Shown here piece by piece: positions 1,447-10,588 of a DNA stretch of 12,958 nucleotides (the stretch's first letter is position 1; each line of letters starts with the position of its first letter). The notes under the pieces were generated by a model, which saw nothing but the letters and a program-made list of their open reading frames with translations, ran no database searches and was not told where the DNA came from. This DNA is from Armatimonadia bacterium. GTDB lineage: Bacteria > Armatimonadota > Zipacnadia > Zipacnadales > UBA11051. Made by a program: the position numbers and the translations under genes. The stretch spans positions 1 through 12,958 of the forward strand of contig JBDKRC010000291.1 of NCBI GenBank assembly GCA_039683575.1, read 5' to 3'.

Positions 1447-4086
1447 CTAACGACCGCCCTCCTCAGTCTCGCCGGCCACGGCAAACATCCTGGTCTCGCC
1501 CTTATCCATCATAATCCCGATCTCTTTGCCGCCTCGGGGCGACTGCTGCTCATCAACCAGGTCCTTCAGCTTCACCGAACGCCGGAAGTGCAAGGTCTTC
1601 TGCCCCGCCGCCGTGGCATGGATCGAGATGAAGCCCCGGCAGGCGCTGATGACATCATTGCTGTCGCAGTAAATGTGCACTCCCGCCTCCCGCGCCAGCC
1701 CCCGCAGCACCTCAGGGCTTGGCAGCAGCCCGCCACAGAAGACCGTGGTGCCCAGCGATGATTGTTTGGAGGCCAGGGCCACCTGCTGGGTGCCCTCGTA
1801 GTGTCCAAGCGCGGTCACGCCCTCCTGTGTCGGGACGTGCAGGCGTGGCGTGGGGTTGCGGTCATCACCAAAAACATGCCCTCCCGGTACCCCCGGCAGC
1901 CTCTCCAGCACCGCGATCTTCGTGCTCCCGCCGGGTAGCTCCTCGACCTTGAACCCAAGCAGCTCCGACACATTCGCCACTCCGGCCGTCTCCTTCACGA
2001 ACCCCGGCGCATAGAGCCACACCGTCATCTTCCCGGCCTGCTCGAACTGCTCGCGCAGTTGCCGCCGCTGTTCGTCAGTAAGTCGGAAGGCGTTGGTGAA
2101 TACATACATCCTCACACTCGAGGGCAGCTTGCCCTCCAGCACATCGTCCAGCAGGTACAGCCCCACCGTGCAGCCGATGCGGTTGAATTGCCGCCGCATC
2201 TCGCTGACGGTGAAGGCCGTGATCTCATTGGAGTTGCGCAGGTAGAAGTTGCTGTCTTCATCGTTGATGATGGCAACCTGCGGCCTGAACTCGCCTCTCG
2301 CCGGCATCTGCTGCCAGATGTCCCGCTCACGCGCAAAGTTGTCAAAGATCGTCGCGTCGGCCATCCAGCCGGTCCCAAAGTCCATCCACCACGTTCCGCA
2401 GCGCCGCTCAAACTGGTGCCCGAAGTTGCGCCGGTAGACTCCCAGCGTTTCGACCATATTGCTCGTGCGGCCATAGCCCGAGTCCGCCGGTGACAGATGC
2501 GTTCGCGTGTCGTCCTCGTTGATCCACAGCTTGCCATGAAGCTGAATCGAGTCCGCCGGTGACATGAATGACCCCTGGCCGCCCGCCTGCCGGTCGCCGT
2601 AGGAGATCGGTGATACCAGGCAGTCGACATCCGGCGAATGCAGCACCTGATGCAGCCGGAAGTGCCCGGTGACATGGGGGCCGTACGTGAAGCCGGACAG
2701 TTCGTGGTGGTAGCCGTAGAAGAACACGGTCAGCTTCTTGCCCTGGGTCTCTTCCTTGACCACTCGGGCCATCTGCAGCAGATCATCCGCGAGGCACACC
2801 TGCATGTATTCTGAGAAGTCAATGCAGAAGCGCTGCTCCACCGGGTCCCTGAACGCACCCAGTTTGCCCTCGACGCGCTCTTCGAGCGTTGGCACGCGGA
2901 TCGTCTCGAAGGTGACGTCCGGTTGCCGCCACGCAGCCCGCAGCGCCTCCACGGTGCCATACTTCGCCTTGGCCCATTGCGCAAACGCGGCGCGGAAGGG
3001 CTCTTCGAAGCACGGCATGATCTTCTCCCAGGTGTGATCATAGAACCACTCCCCGGCGCTCTGGGCGCAGGGGTGGTAGCCGAGCATGTTATTGCCGAAG
3101 CTCTCCTCCAGGTGCCGAACGGTCTGCCGCAGTGCCGCCGCCGCGTCCGCCCGCCAAAGCTCTGAAGCTGGCGAGGCCATCACCTTCGCCCCGCCATCGT
3201 AGACCTGAATGTGGTCCGGGTGCGCCTGTTTCCACCATTGCGGGGCGTCCAGATTGAGCCGCGGGATGATCAGGGCCTGCGGGTCCACGTTCAGGATGTG
3301 GTTGACTGCCTCATCCAGGCCACTGAAGTCCGGCTCCTTGCCCGGCTCGGTCCAGACGACGGGCAGCGGCGGGTTGCCGATATGCAGCCCTCTCTCGGCC
3401 CCGAGCTTGAGGAGCTCGTCCGACTTGCCCATGCCTCCGCCATATATCGTCCACGGCGGCCCCTGGTGCAGCGAGTTTATCTCCACCTCGCGCGGCTCAT
3501 CCGACCGCAGCCACGCCGAGAAGGTGTAGGTCTTGCCCTTCTGGATAGCGAAGCGCTGGTACATGTGAATCTGGTAGCTGATGGTGCCGGGGCTCGTGAT
3601 CCGCACCCGCAGGCACTTCTGGCCCTGTTTGGGGTTGTCAGGCACCAGAGCCCACTCCACGGCCGCCCCCGTGGAGTTGTTGAGGAAGTAGTTCCAGTCC
3701 TTCGGGGGCTCTTCGCCCTCAAAGTCCCCGCCTTTAAGCAGGTTGGCCGACGCGGGCTTCTCCAGTGTCCCCTCCACCAGCCGCACATCATCCACGAACC
3801 AGTCCCCCACCGGCATGATGTTGCGCAGGTGGCAGCCGACGTTATCGTCATCCACCGGCGCCCGGAAGGTGTAGCTGAACTGCTGCCACTCGGGCGTAAC
3901 CTTGCACACCAGCGGGGTCGCCCCGCCGCCGGCGGTGTGAAACAGCATCATGGGCGGCACCGGCCGGCCATCCACCAGCAGCGTCGGCACTCCCTGGCGC
4001 ACGACCACCCGTCCCTCCAGGGCCAGCGCCGGAGCACCCGCCAGTAGCGTCACCACGAGCATCAAGGCCATCATCACAGCAGGCAT
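1447..4086 (-). CDS. Secreted GH42-like (clan GH-A, beta-galactosidase-like) glycoside hydrolase with inserted CBM4/9-like domain
   Basis: 879 aa. Sec signal (APALA). GEW acid/base-like and WINEDD nucleophile-like motifs, a KYGTVEALRAAW GH42-type segment, and a C-terminal trimerisation-like region. CBM motifs NLLKGGDFE, TYTFSAW and DDVRL. AAGGGG RBS. Substrate not assignable. Confidence 0.8.
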   Translation of the reverse strand: MPAVMMALMLVVTLLAGAPALALEGRVVVRQGVPTLLVDGRPVPPMMLFHTAGGGATPLVCKVTPEWQQFSYTFRAPVDDDNVGCHLRNIMPVGDWFVDDVRLVEGTLEKPASANLLKGGDFEGEEPPKDWNYFLNNSTGAAVEWALVPDNPKQGQKCLRVRITSPGTISYQIHMYQRFAIQKGKTYTFSAWLRSDEPREVEINSLHQGPPWTIYGGGMGKSDELLKLGAERGLHIGNPPLPVVWTEPGKEPDFSGLDEAVNHILNVDPQALIIPRLNLDAPQWWKQAHPDHIQVYDGGAKVMASPASELWRADAAAALRQTVRHLEESFGNNMLGYHPCAQSAGEWFYDHTWEKIMPCFEEPFRAAFAQWAKAKYGTVEALRAAWRQPDVTFETIRVPTLEERVEGKLGAFRDPVEQRFCIDFSEYMQVCLADDLLQMARVVKEETQGKKLTVFFYGYHHELSGFTYGPHVTGHFRLHQVLHSPDVDCLVSPISYGDRQAGGQGSFMSPADSIQLHGKLWINEDDTRTHLSPADSGYGRTSNMVETLGVYRRNFGHQFERRCGTWWMDFGTGWMADATIFDNFARERDIWQQMPARGEFRPQVAIINDEDSNFYLRNSNEITAFTVSEMRRQFNRIGCTVGLYLLDDVLEGKLPSSVRMYVFTNAFRLTDEQRRQLREQFEQAGKMTVWLYAPGFVKETAGVANVSELLGFKVEELPGGSTKIAVLERLPGVPGGHVFGDDRNPTPRLHVPTQEGVTALGHYEGTQQVALASKQSSLGTTVFCGGLLPSPEVLRGLAREAGVHIYCDSNDVISACRGFISIHATAAGQKTLHFRRSVKLKDLVDEQQSPRGGKEIGIMMDKGETRMFAVAGETEEGGR

Positions 4087-4417: not shown

Positions 4418-5641
4418 ATGCCAAAGTCGCTATTGCCAAGAGGGCCCATGTCCCCTCTTCTGGCTTGCCTGCTGGGCAGCCCAGACGAGCTTCACGAATC
4501 GCTTGCGCTCGCCAGCGACCTGCCGCTGCTCGCCTTGAGGCATGGGGTAGTGACGCTACTTTACCAACAACTGCGCCAGCATGATCTCCTGTCGCGGCTT
4601 CCGGATGATCAGCGCGCGCAACTCAAGTCCCTGCACCTCATGGCCATGGAGCGCCGCCTGCGCCGTCTGGACGCGGCCGCAGAGCTCTCGCAGGCTCTGG
4701 CGCAAGCCCACTTCACCCGCTATCTTCCTCTCAAGGGATGGGCGGTCCTGGCCTCTGGCGGCTCTTCACCGCTCCTGCGGGAGATGATCGACCTCGATCT
4801 TCTGGTCTCGCCTGCGGATGCGCAGGAGGTCTATGATCTCCTGCAGCAAGCCGGCTGCCGGGTGGCTGACATGCCTTGGATCCCAACTCCCTGGGAGTAC
4901 CACCTTCCCCGGCTTGAATTGCGCTCAGTCCCCATTGAGCTCCACTGGCGCCTTTGGCCGCATTCGCCGCTGCAGCCTTTTGCCCTGCCTGACTTTGAGG
5001 CCTTGTACTCGCGGGCCATTGCGGGGCGTCTGGAAGGGCAGAACTTCATGGTGCCCTCGGTTGAGGACCAGTTCCTCATACAGGCGGCGGGGCTGGCCGA
5101 AGACGGGTTCACCACCTGCCTGCGCGGCTGGGCTGACCTGTACTGGCTCCTCCAGCTACTGCCGGCCGACGGTGGCCAGCTTTGGAACCTCGCTGTTGCC
5201 GCCCGGATGCACGGGTACGCGCTGGTCATGCTGTCGCTCCTGCACGAGCTTTTGCAGTGTGACCTTCCCGTCCAATCACATCTGCCGGCGGAACTGCACC
5301 CGATCAGCAACGCTCTTGGCGAGATCGCCTGGCGGCGCCTGTGGATGGCGGACATGAAGCGAGCCTCAACCTGGATGCTGACGGGGATCTACAGGCTGAG
5401 ACATCGCAGGCGTTGGTACGCCAGTAGTTGGGGGAAGGAACTGCCCGAGTGGTTGCAGTCTGAAGTGCGGGGTGGCCCGGCAGGCTGGGCCGTGCTGCAT
5501 GCCGGCGGCGCGGTTGCGGCGGGCCTGAAGGTCGCTGCTCGCCTCGGCCGCCTCGCCGTTGTGCCCTCTGAGCGCCGTGCCGTGCGCGAGGACCTTCGTC
5601 TGGTTCACCTGCTCCACGGCCTCGCTAACAAGGTTGGGTAG
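4418..5641 (+). CDS. Nucleotidyltransferase family protein (NTP_transf_5-like, RiPP-cluster associated)
   Basis: 407 aa. Motifs LALRHGV, LPLKG, REMIDLDLLV (DxD), IELHWRL and WADL, typical of the nucleotidyltransferases found in lasso/RiPP clusters. AGGGA RBS. Confidence 0.85.
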   Translation: MPKSLLPRGPMSPLLACLLGSPDELHESLALASDLPLLALRHGVVTLLYQQLRQHDLLSRLPDDQRAQLKSLHLMAMERRLRRLDAAAELSQALAQAHFTRYLPLKGWAVLASGGSSPLLREMIDLDLLVSPADAQEVYDLLQQAGCRVADMPWIPTPWEYHLPRLELRSVPIELHWRLWPHSPLQPFALPDFEALYSRAIAGRLEGQNFMVPSVEDQFLIQAAGLAEDGFTTCLRGWADLYWLLQLLPADGGQLWNLAVAARMHGYALVMLSLLHELLQCDLPVQSHLPAELHPISNALGEIAWRRLWMADMKRASTWMLTGIYRLRHRRRWYASSWGKELPEWLQSEVRGGPAGWAVLHAGGAVAAGLKVAARLGRLAVVPSERRAVREDLRLVHLLHGLANKVG

Positions 5642-5646
5642 ACTCT

Positions 5647-6030
5647 CTACTTCGTACGCCACCACGCCCTGAGACCTCTCCACCACAGCCGCACCGCGCC
5701 CAGCGCCTTCACTCCCTCCACCACACCGAGAACCCGGTTGACCGGCACGGGTGCATCCGGTCTGTCCGCCGTGTCCCCCCAGGTCTGCATGAACCTCTGC
5801 TTCTCCTGCCACCACAGCCGCACCAGGCGGTGGCAGGTCAGGTTGCCATCGGCGTCCTCGTACAGCACCACGTCGCCCCGCGCGACCTGCTGTACGGGAT
5901 GCACCCGGACCTCGGCCCCGTCGGGTATCGTGCCACCCATGCTCAGCCCCGTAGCGAGGAAGGTCACCGGCCGCCCGTCGGCCAGCAGCCCGCGCACGAG
6001 TTCGCGGTACTCCTCCGCCGGGATCTTCAT
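5647..6030 (-). CDS. S24/S26-family peptidase, soluble, Ser/His type
   Basis: 127 aa. GLSMGGTI (catalytic Ser box), RGDVVLY, CHRL and TWGD...D boxes of signal-peptidase-like proteins. No transmembrane helix. ATGA overlap with the upstream kinase-like gene at 6027-6030. Confidence 0.85.
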   Translation of the reverse strand: MKIPAEEYRELVRGLLADGRPVTFLATGLSMGGTIPDGAEVRVHPVQQVARGDVVLYEDADGNLTCHRLVRLWWQEKQRFMQTWGDTADRPDAPVPVNRVLGVVEGVKALGAVRLWWRGLRAWWRTK

Positions 6031-6818
6031 AGCAGCGTCTCCAGGGCCGTGACTGCCGTCGCGTCGGGCACGAAGGCGTACTCATAGACTGGAGCGCAGG
6101 CGGCCAGATCCCCGAGCACTTCCATCGTTAGCGGCATGCTGCGCGGGGACCACGAGAAGAAGCGGGTGGTCTGGATCAGCCGCCGGATGGTCTCATTGGT
6201 GTTCAGAGCAGCGAACTCGTTGCGCCGGCCGTGCTTGAGGAAGCATATGACAGCGGGTGGCCCGCCGGCCGTGGCATGGGCGAAGCCGGGCCAGGGACTG
6301 CCGTAGACGCTCAGACCCTCAGGCCCGCGCGCAGTGAAAGGGTACTCATCAGTAACGATCCTGCCGCCGTGTCTCCCGATCAGACGCGCGAGGGTGCTCT
6401 TGCCGCGCTGCTGCTGCCCCAGTAGCAGCACGAGCTTGCCTTTGAGCAAACATAGCGCCCCGTGCAAGAAGGCTCCCTCATGATGCGCCAGGTGCCCCCA
6501 CAGCGCCAGCATCAGCCATGGCCTGCCGTCAAACGGCCTGCGCTGCTCGCGCGGCAATACTACCTCGAAATTCCGGAAGTCCGCAGCCGCGTCGAGGATA
6601 CCCCGCGGGCGCGCAAAGCGCAGCCCCGCCGCGACTTCCTCGACGTGCATATCCGCGCGCGGCAGGCCTCGCAGCGGGTGATGACTGATGTTCAGTGTGA
6701 AATCCGGCTCAATAGGAGGGGGTGTAACAAAGGGGAGTAGATTGCGCGCCAACCGCAGGCCCAAGTGGCCCTGCAGCAGACATGACCGACCGGTGAGAAC
6801 AAGGCCGCAGGTGACCAT
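6027..6818 (-). CDS. HprK-related P-loop kinase-like protein (RiPP-cluster associated)
   Basis: FLHGA, Walker A GQQQRGKST, IVTDE (Walker B-like) and VYGSPWPG. Start reassigned to ATG 6818 because the ORF-track start at 6905 lies inside precursor gene A2. Confidence 0.8.
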   Translation of the reverse strand: MVTCGLVLTGRSCLLQGHLGLRLARNLLPFVTPPPIEPDFTLNISHHPLRGLPRADMHVEEVAAGLRFARPRGILDAAADFRNFEVVLPREQRRPFDGRPWLMLALWGHLAHHEGAFLHGALCLLKGKLVLLLGQQQRGKSTLARLIGRHGGRIVTDEYPFTARGPEGLSVYGSPWPGFAHATAGGPPAVICFLKHGRRNEFAALNTNETIRRLIQTTRFFSWSPRSMPLTMEVLGDLAACAPVYEYAFVPDATAVTALETLL

Positions 6819-6841
6819 ACACGCAGCCGCCTGTTCAGCGT

Positions 6842-6988
6842 CTACCGGGCGCAGCGGGCACTTCCGCAAGTTCCGGACTGCTTGGTGTTTGATGAGGCCC
6901 AGCAAGCCGCCAGGACATCGACCTCGTTCTCCAGCGATACTTCCTCAACCTCGGGCCTATGCCACTGCTTCCGCTGCTTCTCTGCCAT
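6842..6988 (-). CDS. RiPP precursor peptide A2, 48 aa: MAEKQRKQWHRPEVEEVSLENEVDVLAACWASSNTKQSGTCGSARCAR
   Basis: ATG 6988 with AAGGGG RBS, TAG at 6842. WxxP leader motif and three-Cys core. 25/48 identical, ungapped, to the adjacent A1. Confidence 0.9.
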   Translation of the reverse strand: MAEKQRKQWHRPEVEEVSLENEVDVLAACWASSNTKQSGTCGSARCAR

Positions 6989-7065
6989 GGAAATCCCCTT
7001 GTCGGTCCCATGGAGCGTCGGTGAGAGCCCGCTCGCGAGGAAGTGAGGTTCCGCGACGCCCGGGC

Positions 7066-7212
7066 CTAGCTGGCGCAGGCGGAGTGCCCACACATCGGCC
7101 GGCCCTTTGATTGTGATGCTGACCAACAGGCCCGCAGCACGTCCGCTTCATTTTCCAGCGCGATTTCTTCGACTTCCGGCTTCCGCCATTGCTTCTGATC
7201 ATGCTGTGACAT
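7066..7212 (-). CDS. RiPP precursor peptide A1, 48 aa: MSQHDQKQWRKPEVEEIALENEADVLRACWSASQSKGRPMCGHSACAS
   Basis: Manually translated; absent from the ORF track. ATG 7212, TAG 7066. Same length, leader and Cys spacing as A2. Lies directly downstream of the radical SAM gene. Confidence 0.9.
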   Translation of the reverse strand: MSQHDQKQWRKPEVEEIALENEADVLRACWSASQSKGRPMCGHSACAS

Positions 7213-7241
7213 ATAGGTTCACTCAACAGGGTCTACGATGA

Positions 7242-7270
7242 AGGATATACATCCATGCTGCTTCGGTCAA
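7242..7270 (-). promoter_or_regulatory. Putative sigma70-type internal promoter for the precursor genes (TTGACC-N17-TATCCT)
   Basis: -35 TTGACC at 7270-7265, an exact 17-nt spacer, and -10 TATCCT at 7247-7242, in the 85-nt gap between the rSAM stop and the A1 start. Confidence 0.55.
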
Positions 7271-7297
7271 GAGACTGCGTTCGGCGGCTTAGCTTCA

Positions 7298-8371
7298 CTA
7301 GTCGGGCACTGTCTTGTGCAATCCGTACGCGATCGCCCGCAAGTGCCCCAGTTCACACAGAAACGGGGCAGGCGCCCCGGCGTCTTCACCAGCTAACAGC
7401 GCGTGCGCGGGGCAGGTGCGGCAGAGTTGCGGCCAGTTGCAGCCGCGACACCGGTCACTGTGGGCGTCGATGCCCGCCAGCAACTCCGGCAACCGCGCCC
7501 AGCCTTCCTTAACGCTTCCCTTACGCAAGTCGTATCCGGGTTCAGCCAGCATCAAACACGGCCGCAGCATTCCATACGGGTCCACATGGAAGTCGCGTTC
7601 TCCCACGCGGCACCGGAAGATCCGGTGGTCATCCGGCTCAGGCGCCCGGAAATGCTCGAGCAGTCGCCTCCACTCCGCCACTCGCACCGGGTCAGCCAGC
7701 TCCAACTGCAGCACGTCCGCCGGCGTCAGACGCTCCGCCTCAGGGTTGCCTCCGCTCTCGGGCAGACACCCCGTCAGTTCCGCATCCCACTTGAATATAG
7801 CTTGGTAGCGACCAGACTGTGCTCTCAAGGCCGCGAGTTCGTGTACATTGCGTCGCGTGATGACCGTCTTGACCTCAACCTTGACACCGGCGGCGACAAG
7901 CAGGTCCACTCCCGCCAGAACCCGGGCGTGTAGCCCCTCGCGCCCTGTCATTAGCCGGTAGGTCTCCTCGCTGGCGCCATACAGGGTTATCGAGACCTGC
8001 CGCGGCGTCCACTCCGCCAGGAAGGCGACAGTCTCCTCGTCAAGCAGGAAGGCGTTGGTGAAAAGCTCCGGCAGTATGCCGCGCTGGACCGCCGCCAGCC
8101 AAATGCCCCGGAAATCGGGTCTCAGCAGGGGCTCGCCACCAGTCAGCGTCAGGAAGAGCACCCCTTCATCCGCCGCCTGGCCCAGGATCCTGTCCCACTC
8201 CTGCAGCGTCAACTCCGGCCGGGGCGTCGGGCCACCCTCGGGCAGCCGGCAAAAGCAGTGGGCGCATCCGAAGTTGCAGCGGTAGGTCAACTCGGCACTC
8301 ATCGTCAGCGGATGCCGCCTACCGTCAGCCTCCAGGCGCTCAAACAGGTCGTCAACCGTCATGGTCCTCAC
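7298..8371 (-). CDS. Radical SAM/SPASM domain peptide maturase
   Basis: CNFGCAHC (CxxxCxxC), TGGEP and ELFTNA. SPASM cysteines C-x12-G-x4-C and C-x2-C-x5-C-x2-C-x18-C. GTG start overlaps the PqqD stop (GTGA); ATG 8362 is an alternative start. Confidence 0.95.
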   Translation of the reverse strand: MRTMTVDDLFERLEADGRRHPLTMSAELTYRCNFGCAHCFCRLPEGGPTPRPELTLQEWDRILGQAADEGVLFLTLTGGEPLLRPDFRGIWLAAVQRGILPELFTNAFLLDEETVAFLAEWTPRQVSITLYGASEETYRLMTGREGLHARVLAGVDLLVAAGVKVEVKTVITRRNVHELAALRAQSGRYQAIFKWDAELTGCLPESGGNPEAERLTPADVLQLELADPVRVAEWRRLLEHFRAPEPDDHRIFRCRVGERDFHVDPYGMLRPCLMLAEPGYDLRKGSVKEGWARLPELLAGIDAHSDRCRGCNWPQLCRTCPAHALLAGEDAGAPAPFLCELGHLRAIAYGLHKTVPD

Positions 8372-8682
8372 GGCTGAACCACCAGACCGCGTTGGACGAG
8401 ATCATCCAGAAGTTCCTGAACGTCCTTCCGCAGGTCCTCTTCGTCCACCTCATACTCCTCGGCCAGCGCCGCCACCAGGGCGTCCAGGTCTCGGGCCTGC
8501 GCCAGGAGTTCCCACACCGCCTGGGCGGTCTCGTTGAGCAGATAGACCTTCTGCAGGTCCACACCGGTTTGGTGCAGCGGCATCAGAAGGTGCTCTCCAG
8601 CTACCTCCCTCGCGACGACGCCCGCAGCTTGCTTGTATATTATCACTTCAATCGCCCGCCCCTGCCGTGCTCGTGATCTCAT
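8368..8682 (-). CDS. PqqD family protein (stand-alone RiPP recognition element)
   Basis: VVAREVAGEHLLMP, YLLNETAQAVWELL, LAEEYEVD and DVQELLDDLVQRGLV match the PqqD/RRE pattern. Start is ATG 8682 or GTG 8646. Confidence 0.93.
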   Translation of the reverse strand: MRSRARQGRAIEVIIYKQAAGVVAREVAGEHLLMPLHQTGVDLQKVYLLNETAQAVWELLAQARDLDALVAALAEEYEVDEEDLRKDVQELLDDLVQRGLVVQP

Positions 8683-8764
8683 CGTCCCCCGATTACCCCC
8701 CGAACTCTAGCCGCCCTGATCGCGTCATGAAGATGTAGAAAACCGACGATTGCAGGGAGGCATC

Positions 8765-9001
8765 ATGAGTCAGCAAACTATTCAACTGCAGATTAGCGGT
8801 ATGACCTGCCAGCACTGCGCGGACACTGTTCAGCGAGCTCTGCTTAGCCATGACGGTGTCTTCAGCGCCGCCATTAACATGCGCGAGGCCCGTGCCACGG
8901 TGAGCTATGATACAGAACTGACCAACCCGCAGGACCTGCTCACGGCAGTCCAGGGGGAAGGCTACGACGCGAAGGTCGCTGAGCCTGCCTCAGCCCGCTA
9001 A
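8765..9001 (+). CDS. copZ: Heavy-metal-associated (HMA) domain protein, CopZ-like metallochaperone
   Basis: GMTCQHC metal-binding motif in a 78-aa single domain. GGGAGG RBS before ATG 8765. Confidence 0.88.
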   Translation: MSQQTIQLQISGMTCQHCADTVQRALLSHDGVFSAAINMREARATVSYDTELTNPQDLLTAVQGEGYDAKVAEPASAR

Positions 9002-9176: not shown

Positions 9177-10124
9177 TCAACTCGTCTTCTGGTCACCCTC
9201 CAGCGGCAAACTCGTCTGGCCTTCCTTGAAGGCATCGCCGATGGCCGCCACCGCCCCTAGTACGCCTACTGACTCAAGCGGTAGGAACACCTTCGTCGCC
9301 TTCCCGTTGGCGATCCGGCTCAGTGCCTCGAGGTACTTGATCGCCAGCAGGTCCGGCGTCGGCTGCCCGTCGTGGATGGCCTGGAACACGCTCCGGATGG
9401 CCTGCGCCTCACCTTCGGCCACGGTCCGCTCGCGGAATTGCTCAGCTTCTGCAACCTTGCGGATGGCCTCCGCCTCACCCTCTGCGCGGTTGATCCGTGA
9501 CTGCCGCTCACCCTCAGCCGCGAGGATCTGGGACTGCTTGATACCCTCGGCTTCGAGGATGGCCGCGCGCTTGTCACGCTCGGCCTTCATCTGCCTGCTC
9601 ATGGCCTCGGTGATGTCCCGCGGCGGCTCGATGCTCTGCAATTCCACCCGCGTCACGCGCACGCCCCACTTGTCGGTGGCGTCATCCATGATCTGACGCA
9701 GTTGCGCGTTGATGCGTTCCCGCGAAACCAGCGCCTCATCAATCTGCATCTCGCCGATGATGTTGCGCAGGTTCGTCTGGGCCAGCTTGATCGCGGCGAG
9801 CCGGAAGTCCGTCACGTTATAGATGTTCCGGAAGGGATCGGTGACCTCGAAGTAGATGACGGCGTCCACCGTCAGCGTCGCATTGTCCGAGGTAATAACC
9901 GTCTGCGGCGCCACATCCAGCACCGTCTCACGCATGTCCACATAGATGATGGACTGCACAAAGGGGAACACCAATGTCAGGCCGGGCTCGGCCACCCGCG
10001 TAAACTTCCCGAAAGTGGCCACAACGCCGCGCTGGTACTGACGGATCACGTACACCGACTTGGCGATCACGATTACGACCAGTATGGCCAGTACAATGGT
10101 TGCGAAAGTCTGTCCCTCAGACAT
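9177..10124 (-). CDS. SPFH/band 7 (stomatin-like, QmcA-type) membrane protein
   Basis: N-terminal TM helix, QTVITSDNA, LRNIIGEM, WGVRVTRVE, AMSRQMKAERDKRA and AEGE coiled-coil repeats. AAGGAGG RBS. Confidence 0.95.
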   Translation of the reverse strand: MSEGQTFATIVLAILVVIVIAKSVYVIRQYQRGVVATFGKFTRVAEPGLTLVFPFVQSIIYVDMRETVLDVAPQTVITSDNATLTVDAVIYFEVTDPFRNIYNVTDFRLAAIKLAQTNLRNIIGEMQIDEALVSRERINAQLRQIMDDATDKWGVRVTRVELQSIEPPRDITEAMSRQMKAERDKRAAILEAEGIKQSQILAAEGERQSRINRAEGEAEAIRKVAEAEQFRERTVAEGEAQAIRSVFQAIHDGQPTPDLLAIKYLEALSRIANGKATKVFLPLESVGVLGAVAAIGDAFKEGQTSLPLEGDQKTS

Positions 10125-10141
10125 CTCGGCCTCCTTGTCGG

Positions 10142-10588
10142 CTAGCTTTCAAGCGGCTTTACCAGGAGTGTCGTTCCCTCGACGCCGGTAATGATGACCC
10201 GGGAATCTACCTGAATCACACTGTCACTGCGCGCCCGCCATTCATCAGACCGCATTCGCACCCGGCCCGTGTTGGCCTGGTTATCAACGACCTCCAGCAC
10301 CACGGCCTGCTGCCCGATCAGGCTGTCAACGTTGGAGGGCACCGTTACGCGCCCATGGATGCTGCGCGCAAGGGGCCGGCTCACGGCCAGCAGGATAGCC
10401 GAGACAACCGCGAAGACCAGCCACTGCACCCACGCCTGGCCGAAAAGCAGCGCCGCCAGCGCCGTCAGGAGCGCACCGGCGCCGATCCACATCAGGAAGA
10501 AGCTGCCGATGAAGACCTCCAGGATCAGCAACACCAGTCCGGCAATCATCCACGCAAGTGCAGGGCTCATGACAGTCGCCTCCGGCAT
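10142..10588 (-). CDS. NfeD family protein (YbbJ-type partner of SPFH protein)
   Basis: Hydrophobic N-terminal helices (W...GLVLLILE) and a C-terminal OB-fold (LIGQQAVV, GRVRMRSDEWRA, VEGTTLLV). Canonical nfeD-SPFH gene pair. AGGAG RBS. Confidence 0.93.
   Translation of the reverse strand: MPEATVMSPALAWMIAGLVLLILEVFIGSFFLMWIGAGALLTALAALLFGQAWVQWLVFAVVSAILLAVSRPLARSIHGRVTVPSNVDSLIGQQAVVLEVVDNQANTGRVRMRSDEWRARSDSVIQVDSRVIITGVEGTTLLVKPLES

Follow-up and report, generated by a model that had tools for sequence, protein, structure and literature searches.

A stretch of 12,958 bases, which is the whole of contig C291 in the 6.23-Mb, 352-contig genome (96% complete) of an Armatimonadia bacterium and is called the window here, carries seven genes that probably form one gene cluster for peptides that are made on the ribosome and modified post-translationally (RiPPs). 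The cluster would consist of two modules that work on a single leader-recognition protein of the PqqD family, a discrete RiPP recognition element (RRE). One module has a radical S-adenosylmethionine (rSAM)/SPASM maturase and twin precursor peptides, the other an HprK-like kinase, a signal-peptidase-like peptidase and a nucleotidyltransferase. The closest characterised system is the linear polyphosphorylated peptide (LPP) pathway of Bacillota; the window holds four of the five LPP core functions and adds an rSAM/SPASM enzyme and cysteine-bearing cores. The analysis established which genes are present, their folds and catalytic motifs, their conserved co-occurrence and the family of the precursors, and it gave a weak model score for the RRE-precursor pair. 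From these we infer every chemical step, the residues that are modified, where the leader is cut, the order of the steps and the role of the product. The features of the cluster are as follows.

8368-8682, minus strand: discrete PqqD-family RRE, 104 amino acids (PF05402, E 5.3e-20)
7298-8371, minus strand: radical SAM/SPASM peptide maturase, 357 amino acids from GTG 8371 (PF04055, E 1.9e-23)
7242-7270, minus strand: promoter-like site TTGACC-17-TATCCT, directly upstream of A1 (consensus scan)
7066-7212, minus strand: precursor A1, 48 amino acids (translation; WRKP leader motif)
6842-6988, minus strand: precursor A2, 48 amino acids (translation; WHRP leader motif)
6027-6818, minus strand: P-loop kinase of HprK/PEPCK fold, 263 amino acids from ATG 6818 (homologs, profile, fold)
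5647-6030, minus strand: soluble signal-peptidase-I-like peptidase of the S24/S26 clan, 127 amino acids (TIGR02228, PF00717, fold)
4418-5641, plus strand: PF14907 (NTP_transf_5) nucleotidyltransferase, 407 amino acids (PF14907, E 1e-36)

The seven genes occupy positions 4418 to 8682. As the original prediction had described, six of them are co-oriented on the minus strand and the nucleotidyltransferase gene is convergent on the plus strand, and the two 4-nucleotide overlaps that it had noted read GTGA at the PqqD/rSAM junction and ATGA at the kinase/peptidase junction. The stops of the nucleotidyltransferase and peptidase genes lie 5 nucleotides apart. An alternative rSAM start, with which the database copy P0001 begins, is ATG 8362, three codons in (354 amino acids); it would leave a short gap between PqqD and the rSAM gene instead of the overlap. 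The longest open reading frame (ORF) of the kinase, from TTG 6905, would overlap A2; since ATG 6818 avoids this and fits the homologs of 267-285 amino acids, it is the likelier start, and it directly follows the A2 stop. The promoter-like site is putative and known by its position only, as the consensus scan found one site against a mean of 0.5 in shuffled sequences. The terminator scan, with 2 sites against 2.6 expected, was not informative. The cassette is present in a single copy in the genome.

The co-occurrence of these genes was followed in 16 loci from species genomes, 80 from metagenomes and 5 from relatives of the window genome, which were scanned with the window proteins and with hidden Markov models (HMMs) built from the first matches. 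Among the loci of 7 kb or more, a close set of 27, whose rSAM scored at least 100 bits to that of the window, was compared with a weak set of 20 with a weaker rSAM. PqqD was found in 24/27 close and 2/20 weak loci, the kinase in 23/27 and 2/20, the peptidase in 19/27 and 0/20, and the transferase in 10/27 and 0/20. A motif-bearing precursor was present in 16 of the 27 close loci and in 1 of the 20 weak ones. Three or more of the four accessory genes occurred together in 18/27 close versus 0/20 weak loci, and all four in 8/27 versus 0/20. When all 91 loci of any length were counted, at least three accessory genes were found in 22/50 versus 0/41. The original prediction would have failed had homologous rSAM genes lacked these peptides or tailoring genes; instead, they were found together.

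The phylogeny of the maturase agrees with these counts. In a maximum-likelihood tree of 106 rSAM rows, a clade of 64 rows (SH-like approximate likelihood ratio test, SH-aLRT, 96) holds 46 of the 49 cassette-linked rows, the window itself and all seven rows with a fused kinase, and the other group of 35 rows has no cassette in any row. L105 and L106 are joined to the window rSAM with a support of 100, among lineages with a single rSAM, and a subclade of 39 rows comprises the three paralog groups of 'triple-rSAM' cassettes. These two loci are the nearest relatives, L105 from the same order (rSAM 53% identical) and L106 from the same genus (49%), and both keep the gene order of the window; in L105 the nucleotidyltransferase gene has the same convergent position. 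Within the order of the window genome the distribution is patchy, with an rSAM at E<=1e-30 in 6 of 41 genomes, the window genome included. Carriers belong to at least seven named phyla and include Desantisbacteria, Acidobacteriota, Nitrospirota, Myxococcota, Thermodesulfobacteriota (Smithella), Lentisphaerota and archaea of the Methanomicrobiales.

In seven loci, all with triple-rSAM versions, a single ORF of 650-690 amino acids encodes the kinase and an rSAM paralog as a fusion (L007:4127-6208, L010:259-2322, L013:1636-3588, L015:1848-3797, L030:145-2175, L032:7498-9453 and L048:178-2139). The peptidase is fused to a GNAT domain in L010:4956-5987, L020:6430-7341 and L108:8133-9239 and has one adjacent to it in L109:10761-11309, which suggests that the N-terminus exposed by leader cleavage is acetylated. 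ABC (ATP-binding cassette) pumps were found in the relatives L004, L015, L020, L031 and L040, those of L015, L031 and L040 being MsbA-like, and a PRMT-like methyltransferase in L004. Proteins with a Peptidase_C25 (gingipain-type) domain occur inside or beside the cassette in L008:4662-5582 and L024:6155-9757, one of them with 1200 amino acids and with cadherin and Ig-like domains.

The two precursors are 52% identical, with 17 of 28 leader and 8 of 20 core positions in common, as counted from the two sequences. A1 has WRKP and VLRA in its leader, then Cys29, Cys40 and Cys46 and a C-terminal serine. A2 has WHRP and VLAA, then Cys29, Cys41 and Cys46 and a C-terminal arginine, and the sequence AAGGGGA stands 6 nucleotides before its ATG. 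When 29 precursors including A1 were aligned, P12, L26, C29 and C46 were invariant. A motif search over all loci gave 44 distinct matches, of which 2 were judged false (L018:2432 and L109:518) and 42 were kept as candidates. These have 20-22 residues between the aromatic residue of W/YxxP, which is tryptophan in 37 and tyrosine in 5, and the cysteine of VLxxC. Four cysteines are present in 29 of the 42, compared with three in A1 and A2. The C-terminal residue is serine in 29/42 and serine or threonine in 32/42. A motif-bearing precursor stands beside the rSAM gene in 23 of 50 loci, and six frames of the 6.23-Mb genome contain only nine motif matches, namely A1, A2 and seven others; with such a background, chance does not explain the association. 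No other precursor-like ORF of the genome stands out from these seven background matches. A1 matched a StsA-related sactipeptide precursor model weakly (E 0.0044, under the cut-off), and no NCBIfam model reached its cut-off on A1, A2 or the precursors of 15 relatives. The metagenomic locus L031:258-7548 carries at least eight precursor genes of the window type around two rSAM genes.

The Pfam scan with PF05402 that the original prediction had proposed identified the PqqD protein clearly, and R25, P35 and W57 are invariant among 20 homologs. Its best NCBIfam matches are the PqqD chaperones of lasso peptides, all under cut-off. The pairing with the precursor was modelled, and the PqqD-A1 complex reached an ipSAE of 0.57 versus 0.01 for the best control, which the tool rates as weak support (alignments of 20 and 29 rows). 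The runs agreed in at least 77% of the contacts, with a partner pLDDT (predicted local distance difference test) of at least 55. In the calibration, 58 of the 80 solved complexes passed the mark, as did 2 of 110 mismatched pairs; ipSAE values up to 0.60 were given by only 7 of the 80 solved complexes and by both passing mismatches. The pass of the PqqD-A1 model may reflect only its likeness to solved RRE-leader complexes. One further PqqD-domain ORF exists in the same genome (G000, contig C306:2452-3198, minus strand; E 2.3e-10 to the cassette PqqD HMM), lies inside a longer open frame and may belong to another RiPP system.

The maturase has no RRE domain of its own, and its cluster motif starts at about residue 32. 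The cysteines of the CxxxCxxC motif and seven cysteines in the SPASM pattern are all invariant in an alignment of 24 homologs. Among solved structures, SkfB (9.8e-12) and PqqE (4.9e-11) are nearest in sequence. The top NCBIfam matches are the maturases of mycofactocin and pyrroloquinoline quinone (PQQ), both far under the cut-off, as are all other named maturase models. Among 8000 candidates scored, 259 proteins were related at E<=1e-10, the best one other than the protein itself being 63% identical, and 702 representatives of 50%-identity clusters were found at E<=1e-30 in 1.84 billion. The names of the homologs in the database read only 'radical SAM protein', and the nearest named one, with 51% identity, comes from a metagenome-assembled genome of Armatimonadota. 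PQQ biosynthesis was rejected as the function of the locus: with the curated models PqqE scored 85.3 versus 381 bits and PqqD 32 versus 46 bits, PqqA gave matches only at E 0.1-0.23, and neither PqqB nor PqqC was found when the window ORFs were scanned.

The kinase was recognised through its relatives. The window protein alone matches HprK-related models only at E 0.017-0.07; it is homologous to proteins in related loci at E values down to 1.9e-56, and of these the homologs in L008, L004 and L005 match Hpr_kinase_C or HprK-related models at 1e-6 to 4e-9. A profile of 16 sequences matched the HprK/P structure 1ko7 over 89 positions (E 2.4e-6), and the other matches in the PDB covered the P-loop only. 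In the AlphaFold2 model (pLDDT 89.4) Foldseek found ATP-dependent phosphoenolpyruvate (PEP) carboxykinases at 5.6e-7 and HprK/P chains at 3e-5 to 3e-4. PEP carboxykinases and HprK/P share one common kinase fold. H119, G134, G139, K140 and T142, that is a histidine and a GK(S)T P-loop, are invariant. An acidic pair lies where the essential D158/D159 of PsmK would be expected and may be its equivalent. Homologs, profile and predicted fold thus bear out the HprK-like kinase named in the original prediction.

For the peptidase the best match was TIGR02228, the archaeal-type signal peptidase I (E 1.4e-8, 34.7 bits versus a cut-off of 51.85), followed by Peptidase_S24 PF00717 at E 6.2e-5 with 23.1 versus 23.3 bits. 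The homolog in L004 scored 64.1 bits to TIGR02228 and passes this cut-off. Invariant residues are S30, M31, H67 and R68; G85-D86 is nearly invariant. The AlphaFold2 model (pLDDT 90.0) resembles the C-domains of LexA and UmuD and signal peptidases including human SEC11 chains, which is the clan SF fold, and has an N-terminal helix at residues 5-17 in place of a membrane anchor. The assignment to S26 peptidases agrees with the L004 homolog, the catalytic residues and this predicted fold. The nucleotidyltransferase, predicted as NTP_transf_5, was found by the PF14907 scan with a match that spans 238 of 249 profile positions.

From these components the following pathway is proposed. The discrete PqqD/RRE protein would bind A1 and A2 through the W-x-x-P-x-V leader motif and present them to the rSAM/SPASM enzyme, which most likely would form thioether links, of the sacti- or ranthipeptide type, from the three core cysteines. 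The thioether is our guess from the sequences; it is favoured by the invariant cysteines, by SkfB as the best solved relative and by the weak precursor matches to StsA-type sactipeptide models. The HprK-fold kinase would then act on a serine and phosphorylate it, possibly more than once. For A1 the best candidate is the C-terminal Ser48, by analogy to paeninodin and pseudomycoidin, the alternative being a serine early in the core, as in LPP. The PF14907 transferase may put a sugar or a nucleotide-derived group onto the phosphate. Finally, the soluble Ser/His/Asp peptidase would cut off the leader in an RRE-dependent manner, probably directly before the invariant Cys29. This position is suggested by the invariant leucine at -3, the often small residue at -1, the fixed spacing and the analogy to the phenylalanine at -3 in LppA. 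We infer that a single RRE serves the rSAM and the peptidase and perhaps also the kinase, since the rSAM lacks an RRE of its own, the PqqD gene overlaps the rSAM gene and the kinase is fused to an rSAM in seven loci.

A number of points weigh against the pathway or parts of it. The Pfam SPASM model stayed below its threshold on the window rSAM (E 0.021, 15.5 versus 21.5 bits), but with its seven SPASM cysteines invariant the enzyme has kept the rSAM/SPASM assignment that it was given at first. The window kinase and peptidase, taken alone, are under every curated family cut-off. The HMMs used for the co-occurrence derive from the window's own relatives, and the loci include near-duplicates, L023 and L024 being identical at the rSAM and L034 and L035 nearly so. 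Among the scanned ORFs of the 12,958-base window contig there is neither an exporter nor a GNAT protein, and many relatives have both. The rule of a C-terminal serine fails in A2 (Arg) and in the nearest relatives L105 (Val) and L106 (Pro), so that Ser48 is no more than a candidate phosphorylation site in the sub-clade of the window. In the LPP pathway itself, deletion of the transferase had no visible effect according to the main text of PMC13381572, so its role is putative even there. PqqE, which forms a C-C bond, scores almost as well on the maturase as SkfB does. The chemical steps of the pathway are all predicted, from genes, alignments and models.

The last but one of these points leads to a rival that keeps the same cluster and the same substrates and assigns the rSAM another reaction. 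The enzyme could form a C-C or C-O link, for example at Trp30 or a lysine, epimerise residues or convert cysteines, and the cysteines would then be disulphides or metal ligands. The nearness of PqqE to SkfB (4.9e-11 versus 9.8e-12), the mycofactocin and PQQ maturases at the top of the NCBIfam matches, though far under cut-off, and the gene for a metal-binding HMA (heavy-metal-associated) domain protein that adjoins PqqD divergently would fit such a reaction. However, two cysteines are invariant in the 29 precursors and no aromatic or lysine core position is. The residue after Cys29 varies as well; it is lysine in 35 of the 44 motif matches and tryptophan in the window peptides. In L105 and L106 no HMA gene was seen next to the cassette, for which reason the metal-binding role that it had suggested was dropped. 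We consider this rival unlikely, though it deserves to be kept in mind, and prefer the thioether-forming maturase.

It is very improbable that two separate modules merely lie side by side here, with PqqD, the rSAM and the peptides as one, and an LPP-like kinase, peptidase and transferase, whose precursor would be elsewhere, as the other. LPP clusters function without an rSAM, and the transferase gene of the window is on the opposite strand, as might be expected of two systems. Against this, the cluster has one RRE gene and the genome only one other, weaker PqqD-domain ORF; the precursor genes stand between those of the rSAM and the kinase, and neighbouring genes overlap by 4 nucleotides. The co-occurrence in 18/27 versus 0/20 loci and the seven kinase-rSAM fusions also join the two sets of genes, and among the genome's ORFs a precursor for a second system does not emerge from the background motif matches. 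Membership in the SynChlorMet (Scm) cassette (TIGR04248-TIGR04251), to which the original prediction had pointed, hardly comes into consideration. The architecture is alike, with a PqqD relative, an rSAM/SPASM and a P-loop ScmC-like protein and a patchy occurrence in anaerobic bacteria and methanogens, and all four Scm models match window proteins or their homologs. The scores of the window proteins, however, were far under the curated cut-offs (ScmE 75.1/400, ScmF 57.8/400, ScmD 17.3/100 and ScmC 12.4/125 bits), the 29 relatives' proteins that were scanned stayed below them too, and the link did not hold beyond this relatedness. No paper with the name SynChlorMet was found among the open-access papers and bioRxiv texts searched. 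Taken together, the conserved co-occurrence, the family to which the precursors belong and the folds of kinase and peptidase agree with one hybrid RiPP pathway, as had been predicted from the first reading of the locus, in which RRE and rSAM/SPASM act with the HprK-like kinase, the peptidase and the NTP_transf_5 enzyme.

Every gene in the cluster is partly covered by contigs from two RNA libraries, both of one sample. Word depth is highest, at 27.2, in the contig over A1 (7007-7180), and another contig covers A2 at 6724-6950. RNA libraries may hold DNA, so this cover is a weak hint only that the cluster is expressed; its depth cannot rank the genes, and the uncovered parts are not taken as silent. 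In two runs of a single study, DNA contigs 95-99% alike extend over the entire stretch; the study may include the source sample, so they add no independent support. The sludge and digester runs X4 and X6-X13, with shares under 0.2, were left out of account.

Outside the cluster, the HMA protein gene lies at 8750-9001 on the plus strand, with an RNA-library contig over 8762-8924. A gene pair for an SPFH/Band-7 protein and an NfeD protein follows at 9177-10588 on the minus strand. On the other side, a protein of 879 amino acids is encoded at 1447-4086 on the minus strand, with weak matches to glycoside hydrolase 42 and CBM_4_9, and adjoining it is the gene of an Fe/Mn superoxide dismutase at 636-1403. 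The contig starts with a perfect tandem repeat of the 7 nucleotides TCAACGA in 18.7 copies (positions 1-131), which is possibly the cause of the assembly break.

The products of the pathway would be Cys-cross-linked peptides that carry a serine phosphate, polyphosphate or phosphoglycosyl group and start with the invariant cysteine. That the cassette and its several hundred relatives make up a distinct RiPP class of bacteria and methanogenic archaea, with an LPP/lasso-type module of leader recognition, kinase, transferase and signal peptidase coupled to one to three rSAM/SPASM enzymes, is in our view a proposition on which the evidence is evenly poised. The locus leads one to expect a scaffold with cross-links and phosphate in the same peptide, a combination without a described precedent. 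The compact version of the window, with a single rSAM, consists of four enzymes, one RRE and two substrates of 48 amino acids, and would be simpler to reconstitute than the triple-rSAM versions. A1 and A2 are a natural pair, one ending in serine and one not, with which the site of the kinase could be probed.

The proposed pathway has features of three known systems. Like the enzymes of the sactipeptide and ranthipeptide pathways (SkfB, AlbA, StsB and PapB), the maturase is an rSAM/SPASM protein with two sets of cysteines for auxiliary clusters, and it is found with cysteine-containing cores and a PqqD-like leader recognition. The combination of an rSAM/SPASM with core cysteines that characterises these pathways is present, as the seven SPASM cysteines are invariant and each window core has three cysteines, two of them invariant throughout the family. 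Unlike in these pathways, the RRE of the window is a separate protein. Neither a kinase nor a nucleotidyltransferase nor a protease of the signal-peptidase type is known to us from sactipeptide or ranthipeptide pathways.

With the lasso peptides paeninodin and pseudomycoidin, as far as they are described in the passages cited from PMC6993621, the cluster shares the HprK-like kinase, the PsmN-type nucleotidyltransferase, the discrete RRE and the W/YxxP leader. According to these passages, PsmK and PadeK attach phosphates repeatedly to the C-terminal serine at its side chain, and PsmN, of an uncharacterised nucleotidyltransferase family, puts a hexose on the phosphorylated peptide; the original prediction had recognised the kinase and NTP_transf_5 as tailoring genes of such clusters, in agreement with this. 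The C-terminal serine that is their phosphosite ends 29 of the 42 precursors of the window family, A1 included. In contrast, the main modifier of the window is an rSAM, and the leader would be removed by a serine peptidase. A lasso cluster was rejected, since neither a lasso cyclase nor a B2 protease was among the scanned window ORFs and the best match to the B2 protease family PF13471 in the genome had 22.7 bits, under the cut-off of 26; the cyclase search covered the window and not the whole genome.

The resemblance is closest to the LPP pathway with LppA, LppK, LppB, LppS, LppD and LppN (Popov et al., Nat Commun 2026 (May), PMC13381572). In the main text of that paper the conserved core is given as a signal peptidase I (SpI) peptidase, an RRE as a discrete protein, a kinase like HprK, an NTP transferase that is uncharacterised and a pump like MsbA, and the leader consensus as YxxPxVLxHQxIxFETxxS. 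Heterologous expression there led to kinase-dependent attachment of as many as four phosphates to core Ser3 and to leader cleavage dependent on LppS. LppS, with the catalytic residues S29, H68 and D93, cleaves only with the RRE, and the phenylalanine at -3 of the leader lies in a hydrophobic cleft. As the accessory set of the window corresponds to the LPP core, the window peptidase gains a tested precedent as an RRE-dependent leader peptidase. Its Ser/His/Asp residues S30/H67/D86 are at nearly the same positions as those of LppS. A discrete RRE is common to both systems, as is an HprK-like kinase, the latter recognised in the window by the 1ko7 profile and the predicted fold, below curated family cut-offs. 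The PF14907 protein is equated with LppN by description only. The two leaders have the part aromatic-x-x-P-x-V in common, and the MsbA-like pumps have their counterparts in three relatives of the window cassette.

The differences from the LPP pathway, as presented in that text, are as clear. The LPP product is linear, whereas the window adds an rSAM/SPASM gene that overlaps the RRE gene in a conserved pairing, and the words 'radical', 'rSAM' and 'SPASM' are absent from the main text of PMC13381572. The window leader reads W-x-x-P-E-V-E-E...VLxxC and not as the LPP consensus, and the cores have invariant cysteines. In place of the MsbA-like pump of the LPP core, no transporter was found among the scanned window ORFs. 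No description of RRE and rSAM combined with an HprK-like kinase was found in the open-access papers and bioRxiv texts searched, their supplements lying outside the search. Of the novelty that had been claimed for the locus, the accessory set therefore falls away, as it has been characterised in the LPP pathway, and the combination with an rSAM and with cysteine-containing cores stands. LPPs were termed Bacillota-restricted, and the carriers of the window cassette lie outside Bacillota, in the phyla listed above. An LPP-type set of genes is thus found coupled to radical SAM chemistry in many phyla, archaea among them, well beyond Bacillota.

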